Positions 3,416 to 58,667 of a stretch of 64,000 nucleotides of DNA are shown one piece after another. The stretch is from Escherichia coli (lineage in GTDB: Bacteria; Pseudomonadota; Gammaproteobacteria; Enterobacterales; Enterobacteriaceae). The notes beneath the pieces are model-generated. The model was not told where the DNA came from. It saw only the letters and a list, made by a program, of their open reading frames with translations, and made no database searches. A program made the position numbers and the translations under genes. Where the stretch lies: NCBI RefSeq assembly GCF_046105845.1, contig NZ_CP151004.1. The stretch is one strand, 5' to 3'. How positions within the stretch are numbered: position 1 is the stretch's first letter; every line of letters starts with the position of its first letter.

Positions 3416-4633
3416 CTACACGTCCAGCAGCAGACGCGTCGGATCTTCCAGCAACTCTTTGATCGTTACCAGGAAGCCCACGGATTCGCGACCATCGATC
3501 AGACGGTGATCGTAGGACAGCGCCAGGTACATCATCGGCAGGATCTCAACCTGACCATTCACCGCCATCGGACGATCTTTGATAGCGTGCATACCCAGAA
3601 TTGCGCTCTGCGGCGGGTTGATGATAGGCGTTGACATCAGGGAACCGAACACACCACCGTTGGTGATGGTGAAGTTACCACCGGTCAGATCTTCAACCGT
3701 CAGCTTGCCGTCACGGCCTTTAACTGCCAGCTCTTTGATTTTCTTCTCGATATCTGCCATGCCTAGGGTATCGACATCACGCAGTACCGGCGTCACCAGG
3801 CCGCGCGGCGTAGAAACCGCCATGCTGACGTCGAAATAGTTGTGGTAAACCACATCATCGCCGTCGATAGACGCGTTCACTTCCGGGTAACGTTTCAGGG
3901 CTTCAACCACCGCTTTCACGTAGAAGGACATAAAGCCCAGACGAATACCGTGACGTTTTTCAAACGCTTCACCGTACTGCTTACGCAGATCCATAATCGG
4001 CTTCATGTTGACTTCGTTGAACGTGGTCAGCATGGCGGTGGAGTTTTTCGCTTCCAGCAGACGCTCTGCCACACGCTTACGCAGGCGAGTCATCGGGACA
4101 CGTTTTTCGCTACGTGCAGCCAGAGCCGGTTGCGCCACCGGAGCAGCCGCTGCCGGAGCAGACTCTTTCGCCGGGGCTTTCGCCAGATGTTTTTCCACAT
4201 CTTCACGAGTCAGACGACCACCCACACCGGTGCCTTTAATGGCGCTGGCGTCGAGGTTGTGTTCAGCCAGCATGCGGCGGATCGCCGGGCTTAACGCATC
4301 GTTGTTTTGCTCTTCCAGAGACGCCTGCTGGCGTTGCGCCGGAGTGGACGCTTTCTCTTCAGATTTGGCGCTGGTTTCTTTACCCGCGCTGTTGCCTTCA
4401 CGCAGGCGACCAAGGATTTGACGAGACGTTACCGTTGTACCTTCATCTTCCAGAACCGCATCCAGAATGCCGTCTGCTGATGCCGGTACTTCCAGTACCA
4501 CTTTGTCAGTTTCGATTTCTACCAGCACTTCATCACGTACGACTGCGTCGCCGGGTTTTTTATGCCAGGTTGCGACGGTGGCATCGGCTACGGATTCAGG
4601 CAGGTCAGGGACCAGAATATCTACGCTACTCAT
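3416..4633 (-). CDS. sucB: 2-oxoglutarate dehydrogenase E2, dihydrolipoyllysine-residue succinyltransferase
   Basis: 405-aa ORF with N-terminal lipoyl domain ([12 protein letters not shown]), Ala/Pro linker and C-terminal acyltransferase core (DHRLIDG). Confidence 0.97.
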
Positions 4634-47068: not shown

Positions 47069-49077
<2,009 letters not shown>

Positions 49078-49085
49078 GAGAAAGT

Positions 49086-50306
49086 ATGACACCAGGCGGA
49101 CAAGCTCAGATAGGTAATGTTGATCTCGTAAAACAGCTTAACAGCGCGGCGGTTTATCGCCTGATTGACCAGTATGGGCCAATCTCGCGGATTCAGATTG
49201 CCGAGCAAAGCCAGCTTGCCCCCGCCAGCGTAACCAAAATTACGCGTCAGCTTATCGAACGCGGGCTGATTAAAGAAGTTGATCAGCAGGCCTCCACCGG
49301 GGGCCGCCGCGCTATCTCTATCGTCACCGAAACCCGCAATTTCCACGCAATCGGCGTACGGCTTGGTCGTCACGACGCCACCATCACCCTGTTTGATCTC
49401 AGCAGCAAAGTGCTGGCAGAAGAACATTACCCGTTGCCGGAACGTACCCAGCAGACGCTGGAACATGCCCTGCTGAATGCCATTGCTCAGTTTATTGATA
49501 GCTACCAGCGCAAGCTGCGCGAGCTGATCGCCATTTCCGTGATCCTGCCAGGGCTTGTTGACCCGGACAGCGGCAAAATTCATTACATGCCGCATATTCA
49601 GGTAGAAAACTGGGGGCTGGTAGAAGCACTGGAAGAACGTTTTAAAGTGACCTGTTTCGTCGGCCACGATATCCGTAGTCTGGCGCTGGCAGAGCACTAC
49701 TTCGGTGCAAGTCAGGATTGCGAAGACTCCATTTTAGTGCGTGTCCATCGCGGGACCGGGGCAGGGATTATCTCTAACGGGCGCATTTTTATTGGCCGCA
49801 ACGGTAACGTCGGTGAAATTGGCCATATTCAGGTCGAACCGCTGGGTGAACGCTGCCACTGCGGCAACTTTGGCTGCCTGGAAACTATTGCTGCCAACGC
49901 TGCTATTGAACAACGGGTGTTGAATCTGTTAAAGCAGGGCTACCAGAGCCGCGTGCCGCTGGACGACTGCACCATAAAAACTATCTGCAAAGCTGCGAAC
50001 AAAGGCGATAGCCTGGCGTCGGAAGTGATTGAGTATGTCGGTCGTCATCTGGGCAAAACCATCGCCATTGCGATCAACTTATTTAATCCGCAAAAAATTG
50101 TTATTGCCGGTGAAATCACCGAAGCCGATAAAGTGCTGCTCCCTGCTATTGAAAGCTGCATTAATACCCAGGCGCTGAAGGCGTTTCGCACTAATCTTCC
50201 GGTGGTACGTTCTGAGCTGGATCACCGCTCGGCAATCGGCGCTTTTGCGCTGGTAAAACGCGCCATGCTCAACGGTATTTTGCTCCAGCATTTGCTGGAA
50301 AATTAA
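49086..50306 (+). CDS. nagC: N-acetylglucosamine repressor NagC (ROK family)
   Basis: 406-aa ORF MTPGGQAQIGNVDLVKQLNSAAVYRLIDQYGPISRIQIAEQSQLAPASVTKITRQL... Confidence 0.96.
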   Translation: MTPGGQAQIGNVDLVKQLNSAAVYRLIDQYGPISRIQIAEQSQLAPASVTKITRQLIERGLIKEVDQQASTGGRRAISIVTETRNFHAIGVRLGRHDATITLFDLSSKVLAEEHYPLPERTQQTLEHALLNAIAQFIDSYQRKLRELIAISVILPGLVDPDSGKIHYMPHIQVENWGLVEALEERFKVTCFVGHDIRSLALAEHYFGASQDCEDSILVRVHRGTGAGIISNGRIFIGRNGNVGEIGHIQVEPLGERCHCGNFGCLETIAANAAIEQRVLNLLKQGYQSRVPLDDCTIKTICKAANKGDSLASEVIEYVGRHLGKTIAIAINLFNPQKIVIAGEITEADKVLLPAIESCINTQALKAFRTNLPVVRSELDHRSAIGAFALVKRAMLNGILLQHLLEN

Positions 50307-50353
50307 TGTGCTTTTATAGTGGCGCTTATTGTTGTCAATATTCTGGGTAGTCC

Positions 50354-51106
50354 ATGACCATTAAAAATGTAATTTGCGATATCGACGGCGTGCTGATGCA
50401 CGATAACGTCGCCGTACCGGGCGCAGCGGAATTTTTGCACGGGATTATGGATAAAGGCCTGCCGCTGGTGTTGCTGACCAACTATCCTTCGCAGACCGGG
50501 CAAGATCTGGCGAATCGCTTTGCCACTGCGGGTGTCGATGTGCCGGACAGCGTGTTTTATACCTCCGCGATGGCAACCGCCGATTTCCTGCGTCGCCAGG
50601 AAGGCAAGAAAGCATATGTGGTGGGCGAAGGCGCACTGATTCATGAACTGTACAAAGCCGGTTTCACTATTACCGATGTGAACCCTGATTTTGTGATTGT
50701 TGGCGAAACGCGTTCCTACAACTGGGACATGATGCATAAAGCAGCCTATTTCGTCGCTAACGGTGCACGCTTTATCGCCACCAACCCGGACACCCACGGG
50801 CGCGGTTTTTATCCGGCCTGTGGCGCGCTATGCGCGGGGATCGAAAAAATCTCCGGACGTAAACCGTTCTATGTTGGTAAGCCGAGTCCGTGGATCATCC
50901 GCGCAGCATTAAACAAAATGCAGGCGCATTCGGAAGAAACGGTGATTGTTGGCGATAACCTGCGTACCGATATTCTGGCGGGCTTCCAGGCCGGTCTGGA
51001 GACGATTCTGGTACTCTCCGGTGTTTCGTCGCTCGACGATATCGACAGTATGCCATTCCGCCCCAGCTGGATTTACCCATCGGTCGCCGAAATCGACGTT
51101 ATCTGA
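50354..51106 (+). CDS. nagD: HAD-family ribonucleotide monophosphatase NagD
   Basis: 250-aa ORF MTIKNVICDIDGVLMHDNVAVPGAAEFL... with HAD motif DIDGVL. Confidence 0.95.
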   Translation: MTIKNVICDIDGVLMHDNVAVPGAAEFLHGIMDKGLPLVLLTNYPSQTGQDLANRFATAGVDVPDSVFYTSAMATADFLRRQEGKKAYVVGEGALIHELYKAGFTITDVNPDFVIVGETRSYNWDMMHKAAYFVANGARFIATNPDTHGRGFYPACGALCAGIEKISGRKPFYVGKPSPWIIRAALNKMQAHSEETVIVGDNLRTDILAGFQAGLETILVLSGVSSLDDIDSMPFRPSWIYPSVAEIDVI

Positions 51107-51362
51107 ATAGCAACCACGCCTCAGGGCGTGGTTTCTTATTTTTACCCATCACTAAAATTCGCCCATTTAATAAAACCCGCCCAAAATTATCGATTCATCA
51201 ATAAATACACCTCTACACCCTACCCTTTTTCATTAATCAGCAATCACCATTACGTTTTTTATTTACCCCCTGCCAAATCGCTTGCGCACAGTGCTGCTTT
51301 GCGGCATTTTTTTAAACAAGCAAACACAACAAGCAACAAATACCAGGTTAACGGAGAAGGTT

Positions 51363-53027
51363 ATGTGTTCAATTTTTGGCGTATTCGATATCAAAACAGA
51401 CGCAGTTGAGCTGCGCAAGAAAGCACTCGAGCTGTCACGCCTGATGCGTCATCGTGGCCCGGACTGGTCCGGTATTTATGCCAGCGATAACGCCATTCTC
51501 GCCCACGAACGTCTTTCCATTGTTGACGTTAACGCGGGGGCGCAACCTCTCTACAACCAACAAAAAACTCATGTGCTGGCAGTAAACGGTGAAATCTACA
51601 ACCACCAGGCATTGCGCGCTGAATATGGCGATCGTTACCAGTTCCAGACCGGGTCTGACTGTGAAGTGATCCTCGCGCTGTATCAGGAAAAAGGGCCGGA
51701 ATTTCTCGACGATTTGCAGGGCATGTTCGCTTTTGCCCTGTACGACAGCGAAAAAGATGCGTATCTGATTGGTCGCGACCATCTGGGGATCATCCCACTG
51801 TATATGGGCTATGACGAACATGGTCAGCTGTATGTGGCCTCAGAAATGAAAGCCCTGGTGCCGGTATGCCGCACGATTAAAGAGTTCCCGGCGGGGAGCT
51901 ATTTGTGGAGCCAGGACGGCGAAATCCGTTCTTATTATCATCGCGACTGGTTCGACTACGATGCGGTGAAAGATAACGTAACCGACAAAAACGAGCTGCG
52001 TCAGGCACTGGAAGATTCCGTTAAAAGCCATCTGATGTCTGATGTGCCTTACGGTGTGCTGCTATCTGGTGGCCTGGATTCCTCAATCATTTCCGCGATC
52101 ACCAAGAAATACGCCGCCCGTCGCGTGGAAGATCAGGAACGCTCTGAAGCCTGGTGGCCGCAATTACACTCCTTTGCTGTAGGTCTGCCGGGTTCACCGG
52201 ATCTGAAAGCAGCCCAGGAAGTGGCAAACCATCTGGGCACGGTGCATCACGAAATTCACTTCACTGTACAGGAAGGTCTGGATGCCATCCGCGACGTGAT
52301 TTACCACATCGAAACCTATGATGTGACCACTATTCGCGCTTCAACACCGATGTATTTAATGTCGCGTAAGATCAAAGCGATGGGCATTAAAATGGTGCTG
52401 TCCGGTGAAGGTTCTGATGAAGTGTTTGGCGGTTATCTTTACTTCCACAAAGCACCGAATGCCAAAGAACTGCATGAAGAGACGGTGCGTAAACTGCTGG
52501 CCCTGCATATGTATGACTGCGCGCGTGCCAACAAAGCGATGTCAGCCTGGGGCGTGGAAGCACGCGTTCCGTTCCTCGACAAAAAATTCCTTGATGTGGC
52601 GATGCGCATTAACCCACAGGATAAAATGTGCGGTAACGGCAAAATGGAAAAACACATCCTGCGTGAATGTTTTGAAGCGTATCTGCCTGCAAGCGTGGCC
52701 TGGCGGCAGAAAGAGCAGTTCTCCGATGGCGTCGGTTACAGTTGGATCGATACCCTGAAAGAAGTGGCGGCGCAGCAGGTTTCTGATCAACAGCTGGAAA
52801 CTGCCCGCTTCCGCTTCCCGTACAACACGCCGACGTCCAAAGAAGCGTATCTGTACCGGGAGATCTTTGAAGAACTGTTCCCGCTTCCGAGCGCCGCTGA
52901 GTGCGTGCCGGGCGGCCCTTCCGTCGCGTGTTCTTCCGCTAAAGCGATCGAGTGGGATGAAGCGTTCAAAAAAATGGACGATCCATCTGGTCGTGCGGTT
53001 GGTGTTCACCAGTCGGCGTATAAGTAA
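51363..53027 (+). CDS. asnB: Asparagine synthetase B (glutamine-hydrolysing)
   Basis: Start set at MCSIFGVFDIKTDAVELRKKALE (554 aa), with the N-terminal Cys nucleophile; the track ORF begins at 51282. Confidence 0.97.
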   Translation: MCSIFGVFDIKTDAVELRKKALELSRLMRHRGPDWSGIYASDNAILAHERLSIVDVNAGAQPLYNQQKTHVLAVNGEIYNHQALRAEYGDRYQFQTGSDCEVILALYQEKGPEFLDDLQGMFAFALYDSEKDAYLIGRDHLGIIPLYMGYDEHGQLYVASEMKALVPVCRTIKEFPAGSYLWSQDGEIRSYYHRDWFDYDAVKDNVTDKNELRQALEDSVKSHLMSDVPYGVLLSGGLDSSIISAITKKYAARRVEDQERSEAWWPQLHSFAVGLPGSPDLKAAQEVANHLGTVHHEIHFTVQEGLDAIRDVIYHIETYDVTTIRASTPMYLMSRKIKAMGIKMVLSGEGSDEVFGGYLYFHKAPNAKELHEETVRKLLALHMYDCARANKAMSAWGVEARVPFLDKKFLDVAMRINPQDKMCGNGKMEKHILRECFEAYLPASVAWRQKEQFSDGVGYSWIDTLKEVAAQQVSDQQLETARFRFPYNTPTSKEAYLYREIFEELFPLPSAAECVPGGPSVACSSAKAIEWDEAFKKMDDPSGRAVGVHQSAYK

Positions 53028-53040
53028 GAAATGCGGTACT

Positions 53041-53066
53041 GCCCCGGAGAAATCCGGGGCTGTTTT
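53041..53066 (+). terminator. Rho-independent terminator of asnB
   Basis: CCCCGGA-gaaa-TCCGGGG followed by CTGTTTT. Confidence 0.75.
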
Positions 53067-53338
53067 AGTTATTGAGCTGCTTGTTGATTCTGATACGCAG
53101 TGAGGAAATGTTCCGGATTTGCTACATCGCTGTTTGACAACTCATCACTGTAGGCCAGTATTTCATAGATTAATTTCCCACCACTATTGTTGAATTCCGA
53201 ATTTCATCCTGTATGACAAAAGAATGGCTGTAGGGTGGGGAAAAAACACAAAGTAAACAATAATTGACGAATATAGCGCCACGCTGTTCGCAACCTAACC
53301 AAACAGTCACTTTCGAGCAATTTTCCTTGAAAAAGAGG

Positions 53339-53380
53339 TTGACGCTGCAAGGCTCTATACGCATAATGCGCCCCGCAACG
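53339..53380 (+). promoter_or_regulatory. Sigma70 promoter of the tRNA operon, with a GC-rich discriminator (stringent-type)
   Basis: TTGACG, a 17-bp spacer, CATAAT, then GCGCCCCGC; the AT-rich tract upstream would suit an UP element or Fis sites. Confidence 0.6.
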
Positions 53381-53406
53381 CCGATAAGGTATCGCGAAAA
53401 AAAAGA

Positions 53407-53483
53407 TGGCTACGTAGCTCAGTTGGTTAGAGCACATCACTCATAATGATGGGGTCACAGGTTCGAATCCCGTCGTAGCCACC
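53407..53483 (+). tRNA. metT: tRNA-Met (CAU, elongator)
   Basis: GGCTACGTAGCTCAGTTGGTTAGAGCACATCACTCATAATGATGGGGTCACAGGTTCGAATCCCGTCGTAGCCACCA; anticodon loop CTCATAA. Confidence 0.95.
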
Positions 53484-53492
53484 ATCTTTTTT

Positions 53493-53578
53493 GCGGGAGT
53501 GGCGAAATTGGTAGACGCACCAGATTTAGGTTCTGGCGCCGCAAGGTGTGCGAGTTCAAGTCTCGCCTCCCGCACCAT
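53493..53578 (+). tRNA. leuW: tRNA-Leu (UAG)
   Basis: GCGGGAGTGGCGAAATTGGTAGACGCACCAGATTTAGGTTCTGG...CTCGCCTCCCGCACCA; long variable arm; anticodon TAG. Confidence 0.93.
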
Positions 53579-53600
53579 TCACCAGAAAGCGTTGTACGGA

Positions 53601-53675
53601 TGGGGTATCGCCAAGCGGTAAGGCACCGGTTTTTGATACCGGCATTCCCTGGTTCGAATCCAGGTACCCCAGCCA
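53601..53675 (+). tRNA. glnU: tRNA-Gln (UUG)
   Basis: TGGGGTATCGCCAAGCGGTAAGGCACCGGTTTTTGATACCGGCATTCCCTGGTTCGAATCCAGGTACCCCAGCCA. Confidence 0.95.
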
Positions 53676-53709
53676 TCTTCTTCGAGTAAGCGGTTCACCG
53701 CCCGGTTAT

Positions 53710-53784
53710 TGGGGTATCGCCAAGCGGTAAGGCACCGGTTTTTGATACCGGCATTCCCTGGTTCGAATCCAGGTACCCCAGCCA
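53710..53784 (+). tRNA. glnW: tRNA-Gln (UUG), second identical copy
   Basis: Identical in sequence to glnU. Confidence 0.95.
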
Positions 53785-53799
53785 TCGAAGAAACAATCT

Positions 53800-53876
53800 G
53801 GCTACGTAGCTCAGTTGGTTAGAGCACATCACTCATAATGATGGGGTCACAGGTTCGAATCCCGTCGTAGCCACCA
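53800..53876 (+). tRNA. metU: tRNA-Met (CAU, elongator), second identical copy
   Basis: Identical in sequence to metT. Confidence 0.95.
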
Positions 53877-53924
53877 AATTCTGAATGTGTCGAATAAGTT
53901 CGGCAAATTCACAAACCAATTTGT

Positions 53925-53999
53925 TGGGGTATCGCCAAGCGGTAAGGCACCGGATTCTGATTCCGGCATTCCGAGGTTCGAATCCTCGTACCCCAGCCA
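53925..53999 (+). tRNA. glnV: tRNA-Gln (CUG)
   Basis: TGGGGTATCGCCAAGCGGTAAGGCACCGGATTCTGATTCCGGCATTCCGAGGTTCGAATCCTCGTACCCCAGCCA. Confidence 0.95.
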
Positions 54000-54036
54000 A
54001 TTTATTCAAGACGCTTACCTTGTAAGTGCACCCAGT

Positions 54037-54111
54037 TGGGGTATCGCCAAGCGGTAAGGCACCGGATTCTGATTCCGGCATTCCGAGGTTCGAATCCTCG
54101 TACCCCAGCCA
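54037..54111 (+). tRNA. glnX: tRNA-Gln (CUG), second identical copy
   Basis: Identical in sequence to glnV. Confidence 0.95.
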
Positions 54112-54114
54112 CAT

Positions 54115-54146
54115 TAAAAAAGCTCGCTTCGGCGAGCTTTTTGCTT
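54115..54146 (+). terminator. Rho-independent terminator of the tRNA operon
   Basis: AGCTCGC-ttcg-GCGAGCT followed by TTTTGCTTTT. Confidence 0.8.
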
Positions 54147-54169
54147 TTCTGCGTATATTCAATGTCGAA

Positions 54170-54262
54170 TGCGATGTTGACACGTCTTATCCTTCAAAGT
54201 CGGATGCGACGCTGACGCGTCTTATCCGACCTACAGTTGGCACGCATCCGGCAATGTTGTAA
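54170..54262. repeat. REP / IRU-like palindromic repeats
   Basis: GTCGGATGCGACGCTGACGCGTCTTATCCGACCTAC and adjacent GCACGCATCCGGCAATG. Confidence 0.65.
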
Positions 54263-54264
54263 GG

Positions 54265-55440
54265 CTACAACCCTAACGCATATTTCAGCGCCTGACGTTT
54301 CAACACGCCAGCACGCTCCGCCGCCATCAAACCAAGATTACGCACAAAACGCAGCGGCGGCAGATTATTACTGAATCCGGCATAAAACAGATCCATACCG
54401 CTCTGCATAATGAAGTTATCCGCCATGCGCCGCATCTGGTAACGCTTGAGGACAGGATAACTGGCCCACGCTTCGCCGTAGCTGCGGGCATTCACCAGAA
54501 CGTCAATCAGGGCATCGACATCACGATAACCAAGATTCACCCCCTGCCCCGCCAGCGGATGGATGGTATGCGCGGCATCGCCCACCAGCGCAAGCCCTGG
54601 CTGCACATACTGCAACGCATGGCGACGCGTCAGCGGAAACGCACCAGCGGCAAGCGGTGTCACGTAACCCAGACGCGACGGGAAATGCTTCGCGATTTCC
54701 GCCTGGAGCTGTGCCATATTCATATTCTGCAACTGGCGAATGCGCGCCGGAGAGTCATACCACACCAGCGATGCCCAGTTATCAAACAACGGCAGAAACG
54801 CACGCGGTCCGTCCGGGGTAAATTGCTGCCAGGTGCTATCGCCGGGATCGTTCTCGCACTGTACGCTAATCAACATACACGACTGTGCATACTGCCAGGC
54901 ATGAACGCCAATTCCCGCCATCTGCCGCACCTGCGAATTTGCGCCGTCGGCACCAATCACCAGCTTCGCGCGGATCGTTTCTCCACCCTTCAGTTCCAGC
55001 TCCTGAAGATCATCATGGCGATGCAGCGCAATCAGCGAGCCTGGCACACGTAACGTTACTTTTGGATGCGCTTCCAGCGCCTGCCACAGCGCCTGTTGCA
55101 GGACGGTGTTTTCCACCATATAGCCAAGCAGCGGCAGCTTAAGTTCAGCGGCGTCAAACACCACATGCGCCGTTTCCCACTCCCACGTTTCCAGTCTGCG
55201 GTAAGGATGGCAACGCATAGCCTGTACTGCATCCCAGACCCCTAACCCTTTAAGCAATGATACCGAAGCCGCACTAATCGCCGAGATCCGCACGTCCGGC
55301 TGGCTGTCAGCGACAAACGGTGCAGGTTGGGCATGTTCGATCACCATTACCGAAAATCCGTGCTGAGCCAGTCCCAGCGCCAGTGCGCCGCCGACCATTC
55401 CTCCGCCGACAATGGCAATTTCCGTTGGTTGATTTGTCAT
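54265..55440 (-). CDS. ubiF: 2-octaprenyl-3-methyl-6-methoxy-1,4-benzoquinol hydroxylase (FAD-dependent monooxygenase)
   Basis: ORF MTMTNQPTEIAIVGGGMVGGALALGLAQHGF... (393 aa in the track; start trimmed to the internal Met for 391 aa). Confidence 0.93.
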   Translation of the reverse strand: MTNQPTEIAIVGGGMVGGALALGLAQHGFSVMVIEHAQPAPFVADSQPDVRISAISAASVSLLKGLGVWDAVQAMRCHPYRRLETWEWETAHVVFDAAELKLPLLGYMVENTVLQQALWQALEAHPKVTLRVPGSLIALHRHDDLQELELKGGETIRAKLVIGADGANSQVRQMAGIGVHAWQYAQSCMLISVQCENDPGDSTWQQFTPDGPRAFLPLFDNWASLVWYDSPARIRQLQNMNMAQLQAEIAKHFPSRLGYVTPLAAGAFPLTRRHALQYVQPGLALVGDAAHTIHPLAGQGVNLGYRDVDALIDVLVNARSYGEAWASYPVLKRYQMRRMADNFIMQSGMDLFYAGFSNNLPPLRFVRNLGLMAAERAGVLKRQALKYALGL

Positions 55441-55585
55441 GGTCAATCATCCTGTTAGCAATATGCTTTAAGTTTACAGGATTTTTACCCCCAAGGGCTG
55501 ATAACGCTCATACTGGTCACAACGGCAGCAAAGCATTACACTATGCGCCCTGCATTCCTGGCTACTATTTCGCAAGAGCAAGTCG

Positions 55586-57010
55586 ATGACCAAAAAACTC
55601 CATATTAAAACCTGGGGCTGTCAGATGAACGAGTACGATTCATCGAAGATGGCCGATCTGCTGGATGCCACCCACGGCTATCAACTGACCGACGTGGCGG
55701 AAGAAGCGGATGTGCTGCTGCTGAACACCTGCTCAATCCGCGAGAAGGCTCAGGAAAAAGTCTTCCATCAGTTGGGTCGCTGGAAACTGTTAAAAGAGAA
55801 GAATCCAGACCTGATTATCGGTGTCGGCGGCTGCGTGGCATCGCAGGAAGGCGAGCACATTCGCCAGCGCGCCCACTATGTCGATATTATTTTTGGGCCG
55901 CAAACGCTGCACCGCCTGCCGGAGATGATCAACTCCGTGCGCGGCGACCGCAGCCCGGTTGTAGATATCAGCTTCCCGGAAATCGAGAAGTTTGACCGTC
56001 TGCCGGAACCGCGCGCCGAAGGGCCGACCGCGTTTGTCTCCATCATGGAAGGCTGCAATAAATATTGCACCTACTGCGTGGTACCTTACACCCGTGGTGA
56101 AGAGGTAAGCCGTCCGTCCGACGATATTCTGTTTGAGATTGCCCAGCTTGCGGCTCAGGGCGTGCGTGAAGTCAACCTGCTCGGTCAGAACGTGAACGCC
56201 TGGCGTGGTGAAAACTACGACGGCACCACCGGAACGTTTGCCGATCTGCTGCGTCTGGTTGCGGCGATCGACGGGATCGATCGTATTCGCTTTACCACCA
56301 GCCATCCGATCGAATTCACCGACGATATCATCGAAGTGTACCGCGACACGCCGGAGCTGGTGAGCTTCCTGCACCTGCCGGTACAGAGCGGTTCCGATCG
56401 CATTCTGAACCTGATGGGCCGTACTCATACGGCGCTGGAGTATAAAGCGATCATCCGTAAACTGCGTGCGGCGCGTCCGGATATTCAGATCAGTTCTGAC
56501 TTCATTGTTGGCTTCCCTGGCGAAACCACCGAAGACTTCGAGAAAACGATGAAGCTGATTGCCGACGTCAATTTCGACATGAGCTACAGCTTTATCTTCT
56601 CTGCACGTCCGGGTACACCAGCCGCCGATATGGTTGATGATGTTCCGGAAGAAGAGAAGAAGCAGCGTCTGTATATTCTGCAAGAACGTATCAATCAGCA
56701 AGCGATGGCATGGAGCCGCCGGATGCTCGGCACCACCCAGCGTATTCTGGTAGAAGGGACTTCGCGTAAGAGCATCATGGAGCTTTCCGGGCGTACCGAA
56801 AATAACCGCGTGGTCAACTTCGAGGGCACACCGGATATGATCGGTAAATTCGTCGATGTAGAAATTACCGACGTCTACCCGAACTCTCTGCGCGGTAAAG
56901 TGGTGCGTACTGAAGATGAAATGGGGCTGCGCGTGGCAGAAACACCAGAATCGGTCATTGCCCGTACCCGCAAAGAAAACGACCTTGGCGTGGGTTATTA
57001 TCAGCCGTAA
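55586..57010 (+). CDS. miaB: tRNA-i6A37 methylthiotransferase (radical SAM)
   Basis: 474-aa [40 protein letters not shown]... with CxxxCxxC (CNKYCTYC). Confidence 0.97.
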
Positions 57011-57036
57011 TTCTCAGGCCCGCCGTTCCGGTGGGC
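57006..57036 (+). terminator. Rho-independent terminator / attenuator after miaB
   Basis: AGGCCCGCCG-ttc-CGGTGGGCCT 10-bp stem followed by TGTTTTTT. Confidence 0.7.
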
Positions 57037-57054
57037 CTTGTTTTTTCTCTCTTT
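57027..57054 (+). promoter_or_regulatory. Candidate sigma32 (heat-shock) promoter for ybeZ-ybeY-corC-lnt
   Basis: CTTGttt (-35-like), a 13-nt spacer, then CCCCATCT (-10-like, consensus CCCCATnT), about 110 bp upstream of the ybeZ start. Confidence 0.5.
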
Positions 57055-57162
57055 ATCCCCATCTTTATCGCAATGCTTGCGCCTTTTTCCTGTGGCGTGA
57101 ATAATTTCCTTATAGGCCGGTGAATGTTCAGCTTCCGGCGGCATACAGATAAGAGGAACGGT

Positions 57163-58203
57163 TTGAACATAGACACTCGCGAAATCACCCTGGAGCCAGC
57201 AGACAACGCGCGTCTGTTGAGCCTGTGCGGCCCGTTTGATGACAACATCAAACAACTCGAACGCCGTCTCGGCATCGAAATCAATCGCCGCGATAACCAC
57301 TTTAAACTGACCGGCCGTCCGATTTGCGTCACCGCTGCGGCAGACATTCTGCGTAGCCTGTATGTCGATACTGCCCCGATGCGCGGTCAGATTCAGGATA
57401 TTGAACCGGAACAGATCCACCTTGCGATTAAAGAAGCGCGGGTACTGGAGCAAAGCGCGGAGAGCGTGCCGGAGTACGGCAAAGCGGTCAATATCAAAAC
57501 CAAACGCGGCGTAATCAAGCCGCGCACGCCAAACCAGGCGCAGTACATCGCCAATATTCTCGACCATGACATTACCTTCGGCGTTGGCCCGGCGGGTACG
57601 GGTAAAACCTACCTGGCAGTGGCTGCAGCAGTTGATGCCCTGGAGCGTCAGGAAATTCGCCGTATTCTGCTGACTCGTCCGGCGGTAGAAGCCGGTGAGA
57701 AACTGGGCTTCCTGCCTGGCGATTTAAGCCAGAAAGTAGATCCGTATCTGCGCCCGCTGTACGACGCGCTGTTTGAAATGCTGGGCTTTGAGAAAGTCGA
57801 GAAACTGATTGAGCGCAACGTTATTGAAGTCGCGCCGCTGGCCTATATGCGTGGCCGTACGCTGAACGACGCGTTTATCATTCTCGATGAAAGCCAGAAC
57901 ACCACCATCGAACAGATGAAGATGTTCCTGACCCGTATCGGTTTTAACTCAAAAGCGGTTATCACCGGCGACGTCACGCAGATCGACCTGCCGCGTAATA
58001 CTAAATCAGGCTTACGTCATGCCATCGAAGTGCTGGCTGACGTCGAAGAGATCAGCTTTAACTTCTTCCACAGCGAAGACGTGGTTCGTCACCCGGTGGT
58101 GGCGCGTATCGTTAACGCTTATGAAGCCTGGGAAGAAGCAGAACAAAAACGTAAAGCGGCGCTGGCAGCAGAACGCAAGCGCGAAGAACAGGAACAAAAA
58201 TGA
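57163..58203 (+). CDS. ybeZ: PhoH-like ATPase YbeZ
   Basis: Start assigned to TTG at 57163 (346 aa, ..[18 protein letters not shown]..) with an AGAGGA RBS; an in-frame ATG at 57124 is the alternative. Walker A GPAGTGKT. Confidence 0.9.
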
Positions 58204-58667
58204 GTCAGGTGATCCTCGATTTACAACTGGCATGTGAAGATAATTCCGGGTTACCGGAAGAGAGCCAGTTTCAAACATGGCTGAATGCAGTGATCCCGCA
58301 GTTTCAGGAAGAGTCGGAAGTGACTATTCGCGTGGTCGATACCGCCGAAAGCCACAGTCTGAATCTGACCTATCGCGGTAAGGATAAGCCGACCAACGTG
58401 CTCTCCTTCCCGTTTGAAGTGCCGCCTGGCATGGAAATGTCGCTACTGGGCGATCTGGTTATCTGCCGTCAGGTGGTTGAGAAGGAAGCACAGGAGCAAG
58501 GCAAACCACTGGAGGCGCACTGGGCGCATATGGTGGTGCACGGCAGTCTGCATTTGTTAGGTTACGATCACATCGAAGATGACGAAGCAGAAGAAATGGA
58601 AGCCATCGAAACAGAGATTATGCTTGCTCTGGGCTATGAGGATCCGTACATTGCCGAGAAAGAATAA
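58200..58667 (+). CDS. ybeY: Endoribonuclease YbeY (16S rRNA 3'-end maturation)
   Basis: 155-aa ORF with the H-x-x-x-H-x-x-G-x-x-H metal motif ([11 protein letters not shown]). Confidence 0.96.

Follow-up and report, generated by a model that had tools for sequence, protein, structure and literature searches.

Work on the metT operon of Escherichia coli goes back to about 1980, and every E. coli genome carries its annotation. Russell et al. reportedly found in 1970 that the tandem tyrT-tyrV genes of E. coli lose and gain copies by unequal recombination, and Anderson and Roth are said to have described rrn-mediated duplications in 1981 (listed in PMC10954465). The metT operon resembles these cases in that short exact direct repeats lie close together, whole units are gained and lost, and the junctions fall inside the repeats. 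It differs from them in that three interleaved repeat families sit in one essential operon, which is why some recombination products, such as the deletion between the two Met genes, should be lethal. The operon is not mentioned by Raval et al. 2023.

In E. coli K-12, transcription of the operon yields a single precursor, from which the terminator is taken off, chiefly by RNase E/G, before RNase P cuts the tRNAs apart (PMC2241853). The metT and metU genes give identical elongator tRNA-Met products (PMC6265465). No other genes in the cell encode the elongator tRNA-Met(CAU), Leu(UAG), Gln(UUG) or Gln(CUG), which makes the unit essential (PMC11480407). The classical amber suppressor supE44, or glnX44, is carried by glnX in laboratory strains and is viable because the Gln(CUG) genes are duplicated (PMC4444293, PMC11148124).

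We examined this locus in the window, the whole 64-kb stretch of DNA (64,000 nucleotides) that was analysed. The operon is already known and ordinary. It matches the described metT operon of E. coli in gene order, anticodons, identical pairs, position between asnB and ubiF, and terminator (PMC2241853, PMC6265465, PMC11480407), and differs from it only by point differences in the flanks and spacers. We consider it very probable (roughly 0.92) that the locus is the long-known metT operon whose identical tandem pairs are homogenised by selection and exchange, with repeat units occasionally lost or gained.

Seven tRNA genes were found by ARAGORN, all on the + strand between 53408 and 54111, and no others were found in the window (Table 1). 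The same seven were matched by Rfam RF00005 at 57.6-71.1 bits (gathering score 29), and an Rfam scan of the whole window gave no matches besides them. The order on the one strand is Met(CAU), Leu(UAG), Gln(UUG), Gln(UUG), Met(CAU), Gln(CUG), Gln(CUG), with intergenic spacers of 8, 23, 34, 15, 48 and 37 nt, and the 3' CCA is encoded in 7/7 genes. The matching annotated E. coli record lists its tRNA genes in this order too, between asnB and ubiF. A minus-strand open reading frame at 53833..54183 (116 aa) lies across metU, glnV and glnX; that record contains no equivalent of it, and it was rejected as spurious.

Table 1. Features of the metT locus, with positions in the window and the evidence for each
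Feature	Position	Strand	Evidence
asnB (asparagine synthase B), upstream core-gene flank	51363-53027	+	coordinates transferred from annotated record
promoter-like site TTGACG, 17-nt spacer, CATAAT	53339-53367	+	10/12 consensus matches
metT, elongator tRNA-Met(CAU), 77 nt	53408-53484	+	ARAGORN, Rfam; tRNA-Met in matching annotated E. coli record
leuW, tRNA-Leu(UAG), 85 nt, single copy	53493-53577	+	ARAGORN, Rfam, annotated E. coli record
glnU, tRNA-Gln(UUG), 75 nt	53601-53675	+	ARAGORN, Rfam, string comparison
glnW, tRNA-Gln(UUG), 75 nt	53710-53784	+	ARAGORN, Rfam, string comparison
metU, elongator tRNA-Met(CAU), 77 nt	53800-53876	+	ARAGORN, Rfam, string comparison
glnV, tRNA-Gln(CUG), 75 nt	53925-53999	+	ARAGORN, Rfam, string comparison
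glnX, tRNA-Gln(CUG), 75 nt	54037-54111	+	ARAGORN, Rfam, string comparison
Rho-independent terminator, 11-bp stem, GNRA-like loop UUCG, T-rich tail	54117-54152	+	motif scan, folding
ubiF, downstream core-gene flank, convergent with operon	54265-55440	-	annotated record, ORFs, alignment
exact Met repeat including flanking base, 78 nt	53407-53484 = 53799-53876		
exact Gln(UUG) repeat with flanks, 77 nt	53601-53677 = 53710-53786		
exact Gln(CUG) repeat with flanks, 77 nt	53923-53999 = 54035-54111		

An earlier note on this DNA had described a single operon of seven tRNA genes built from exact duplicates. Both points held; the note gave the operon no name and did not mention that it has been studied in detail. 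The genes lie 8-48 nt apart, with one promoter-like site upstream and one terminator downstream, and string comparison showed that metT and metU are identical over 77 nt, glnU and glnW over 75 nt, and glnV and glnX over 75 nt. With their flanks, the three exact repeats extend to 77-78 nt at offsets of 109, 112 and 392 bp. The start given in the earlier note, 53407, is one base 5' of metT, and this base belongs to the exact Met repeat. The Gln(UUG) and Gln(CUG) genes differ from each other at 7/75 positions and have in common an exact stretch of 30 nt at the 5' end. We estimate the chance expectation for exact repeats of 75-78 nt within 700 bp at ~1e-40; such repeats cannot have arisen by chance.

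The site at 53339-53367 is the sole promoter-like site on the + strand within 53000-54500, and a G+C-rich stretch, GCGCCCCGC, lies between it and metT. From its position, its consensus match and the K-12 literature (PMC2241853), this site is the putative metT promoter. The terminator-like site at 54117-54142 is the sole one downstream; it folds at -17.9 kcal/mol (z = -4.5), and 0/200 shuffles folded as well as it did. Motifs and folding thus point to one promoter upstream and one Rho-independent terminator downstream. Given the near-identity to K-12, we assume that a single precursor would be processed here by RNase E/G and RNase P as well.

Downstream of the terminator, between it and ubiF, we observed two tandem 35-nt units at 54158-54227 that are 86% identical, with the consensus TTCAAxGTCGxATGCGAxGxTGACxCGTCTTATCC. 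They resemble palindromic elements of the REP/BIME type. This segment also holds several differences from the best E. coli match.

tRNA genes are common insertion sites of genomic islands, which is the one point in favour of reading the cluster as an integration site or a mobile-element remnant. The genomic setting makes that reading extremely improbable. An ordinary E. coli chromosome aligns without a break to 49000-58500, a span of 9.5 kb in which the identity is 97.9% and gaps occupy just 3 positions; the aligned gene order is nagA-nagC-nagD-asnB, the tRNA genes, then ubiF-miaB-ybeZ-ybeY, so that core genes flank the operon on both sides. Against E. albertii, the identity of the same region is ~94%. 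No tRNA 3'-end repeat, not even a partial copy, was found outside the operon, and the locus shows no integrase with a tRNA 3'-end direct repeat bounding inserted DNA. The 1.5-kb stretch around the operon is carried in one piece by 5,203/5,426 complete E. coli genomes. This agrees with the earlier statement that no integrase or island is attached to the cluster.

The operon region was matched in 5,425 of the 5,426 complete E. coli genomes. The best identity for the stretches tested was only 99.0-99.1%, and the E. coli-group lineage of the window is therefore absent from this set. The best-matching E. coli genome shows 13 differences, and eight of them lie within 96 bp, at 53066-53161, in the asnB-metT intergenic region.

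We next consider copy number within the species. In 222 of the 5,425 matching genomes, the 1.5-kb region is not matched in one stretch, so that about 4% are non-canonical, part of these through assembly error. The rearrangements were counted across the 5,426 complete genomes with synthetic junction queries, each of which can match over its full length only in a genome that carries the rearrangement concerned. One Gln(UUG) gene was found in 71 genomes and one Gln(CUG) gene in 152, and three or more copies were found in 35 genomes for Gln(UUG) and in 29 for Gln(CUG). Deletion from Met to Met, with loss of leuW, glnU and glnW, was found in at least 8 genomes, and Met-mediated duplication in at least 10. 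Both Met classes are lower bounds from the top matches at 100% coverage, since the count at 80% coverage does not discriminate: the 9-13 nt upstream of both Met genes are similar, and the alignment reaches 83%.

Fetched loci displayed the structure of the expanded arrays. H1827/12 has Gln(UUG) x4 and K-12 GM4792 has Gln(CUG) x5, GF130 reads (Met-Leu-Gln(UUG)) x3-Met-Gln(CUG), and Origami2-DE3 reads Met-Leu-Gln(UUG) x3-Met-Leu-Gln(UUG)-Met-Gln(CUG)-Gln(CUG). In all four, the repeated spacers are identical, as expected from unequal exchange.

The earlier note had proposed that the duplicates are substrates for recombination, and had named an invariant copy number across strains as the outcome that would speak against it. 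Copy number is not invariant: ~4% of the 5,426 genomes depart from the seven-gene form, in part as artefact, and it varies both within E. coli and between genera with junctions exactly at the repeats. We conclude that the polymorphism of tRNA-Gln copy number in E. coli is modest and genuine, with junctions inside the repeats, and that part of the variation in the database is certainly artefact.

The extent of this artefact bears on a stricter reading, in which the pairs are identical purely by purifying selection, recombination has no part, and all database variants are collapses or expansions by the assembler. Several observations lend themselves to it. Biologically implausible alleles do occur among deposited 'complete' genomes. 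In the four fetched Met-to-Met deletion assemblies, 536 (NC_008253.1), HS13-1, TUM1223 and MC1061, the asnB-ubiF interval holds only Met and one to three Gln(CUG) genes, with neither tRNA-Leu(UAG) nor either tRNA-Gln(UUG). Without tRNA-Gln(UUG) and tRNA-Leu(UAG), a cell is not expected to be viable (PMC11480407). In HS13-1 and AVS0947, there is one tRNA-Gln-like place in the whole chromosome, which is incompatible with decoding CAA and CUA. The argument from an impossible allele is direct for these two genomes only and is extended to the other Met-to-Met deletion assemblies, which most likely represent collapse between the identical Met genes.

Variants are also strongly enriched in particular sequencing projects. 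Of the 152 single-Gln(CUG) genomes, 60 were listed, and one AVS series accounted for 13 of these and one ETEC series for 14. Among the 71 single-Gln(UUG) genomes, the AVS series made up 8 of the first 25. The GF series contributed 5/10 of the Met-mediated duplications and 1/8 of the Met-to-Met deletions. Seven laboratory strains with neighbouring accession numbers all have operon expansions or other rearrangements. The series enriched in non-canonical alleles are AVS (CP1243xx-CP1245xx), GF (CP172xxx), ETEC (CP1226xx-CP1229xx) and the laboratory-strain set (CP0806xx-CP0845xx). This enrichment suggests effects of assembly pipelines at short tandem repeats. The caution about assembly collapse carries more weight than the earlier note had implied.

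However, other variants are reproducible. The six-gene allele with one Gln(CUG) gene was found in two separate assemblies of E2348/69, and ETEC genome pairs of near-identical size agree in the same allele, as do two O139:H1 strains. The type strain ATCC 11775 likewise has it in one assembly. Where the encoded UbiF protein is exactly that of E2348/69, assemblies from different projects show three alleles, with two Gln(UUG) and two Gln(CUG) genes (2+2) in five, 2+1 in one and 3+1 in two. In view of these strains, and of the comparison between genera and between paralogs below, selection and artefact without any recombination is a highly unlikely account.

The 3+1 allele, with three Gln(UUG) genes and one Gln(CUG) gene, is present in GCA_900448265.1 and GCA_000249155.2, from two projects, and still comprises seven genes (3830-4532).

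To compare the operon across species, a 40-nt leuW core was scanned against one genome per species, which gave 120 loci. The seven-gene layout is kept in E. albertii, Citrobacter, Enterobacter, Edwardsiella, Cedecea, Kosakonia, Mixta and several Pantoea. Other genera have a different and consistent copy number, which argues against assembly artefact as the source of all variants: one Gln(CUG) gene was found in Photorhabdus (5/5 species), Xenorhabdus, Pectobacterium (2/2) and Brenneria, and one Gln(UUG) gene in Erwinia (3/3). Both Budvicia loci (2/2) read Met-Leu-Gln(UUG) x2-Met-Leu-Gln(UUG), with no Gln(CUG) within the operon. In Proteus penneri, we observed the order Met-Leu-Gln x2-Met-Gln(UUG)-Leu, again with no Gln(CUG) within the operon.

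Triple arrays were of two kinds. Three Gln(CUG) genes with diverged spacers are present in a Pluralibacter sp. MAG and in Enterobacteriaceae bacterium RIT691, and P. gergoviae has three Gln(CUG) genes with diverged spacers and one Gln(UUG) gene. An assembler could not have made arrays with diverged spacers by duplication. Inspection of the sequences by eye suggests that the spacers of the first two are orthologous, and their arrangement is old and did not come from an assembler. Superficieibacter has three copies with identical 69-nt spacers; this array is a recent expansion.

Vibrio and Photobacterium (five loci) have in common with the metT operon the Met-Leu(UAG)-Gln(UUG) building block and an identical 40-nt leuW core. 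In contrast to the enterobacterial operon of 6-8 genes, their arrays comprise 11-19 or more tRNA genes, often reaching contig ends, and are without Gln(CUG).

We then compared copies within and between genomes at the 44 loci with the enterobacterial operon type. For Met, the mean number of differences was 0.36 within genomes and 2.41 between genomes, with all copies identical in 32/40 genomes. The values were 0.71 and 3.79 for Gln(UUG) (all identical in 22/34) and 1.57 and 6.13 for Gln(CUG) (13/27). Paralogs within a genome are closer than orthologs between genomes over the 44 loci, and the observed number of identical-copy genomes was reached in 0/2,000 permutations, in a test that ignores phylogeny. 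This is the pattern of concerted evolution.

The two copies share 5-11 departures from the E. coli sequence in several genera. Purifying selection alone is insufficient to explain such shared differences, and homogenisation by exchange or turnover fits them. The same reasoning counts against the strict selection-and-artefact account, given identical copies within a genome and orthologs that are up to 11-13 nt apart.

The Gln(CUG) pair differs by 5 nt in Citrobacter werkmanii, Pseudocitrobacter (two loci) and Mixta, and one member of the pair is the same as in E. coli. Exact identity between glnV and glnX is therefore lineage-specific and not universal.

These diverged pairs imply that the E. 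coli pair was homogenised or replaced, and the second possibility deserves attention. Pair identity may reflect a recent duplication in the Escherichia lineage, in which a diverged copy was lost and the remaining one re-duplicated, and not continuing gene conversion of old paralogs. The triple arrays with identical spacers, in Superficieibacter and in E. coli variants, demonstrate that fresh duplication occurs. However, the glnV-glnX spacer is unlike every other spacer of the operon, and the layout is common to genera from Edwardsiella through Escherichia, which indicates that the positions are old. Furthermore, losing one copy and duplicating the other again amounts to unequal recombination at these repeats, and is thus a variant of the main explanation. 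We regard recent re-duplication as possible, though the less likely course.

Taken together, homogenisation of the metT pairs by selection and exchange can be outlined as follows. One sigma-70 promoter would give a precursor of ~0.8 kb that ends at the Rho-independent terminator. The three identical pairs are tandem duplicates, which would be held identical by purifying selection together with homologous exchange between the repeats of 75-78 nt that lie 109, 112 and 392 bp apart. This exchange probably proceeds by gene conversion, unequal crossing-over or slippage, and may be RecA-dependent or based on slippage. The same exchange would occasionally remove or add a repeat unit. Changes in Gln copy number, which are seen in strains and fixed in genera, appear to be tolerated and would drift within limits; gene dosage may affect fitness. 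The Met-to-Met deletion, with its loss of leuW, glnU and glnW, should be lethal and be removed by selection.

The Gln gene numbers (2+2, 2+1, 3+1, 1+2, and up to 4-5 copies) might also be viewed as a fast, reversible dosage polymorphism under selection that tunes the decoding of CAA and CAG. We consider this unlikely; the alternative is neutral noise plus assembly error. If it were true, natural E. coli populations would tune CAA/CAG decoding through this locus, and the 3+1 allele could be taken as making up for a lost Gln(CUG) gene.

Mis-assembly arises at the metT locus in deposited "complete" genomes. Essential tRNA genes are missing there from the widely used 536 and from one MC1061 assembly, almost certainly through assembly collapse. 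Any count of tRNA genes across strains, or any adaptation inferred from tRNA copy number, needs a check with spanning reads here. In a modest, practical way, the metT operon offers a compact and clearly bounded example in which to study tandem-repeat instability at an essential locus.
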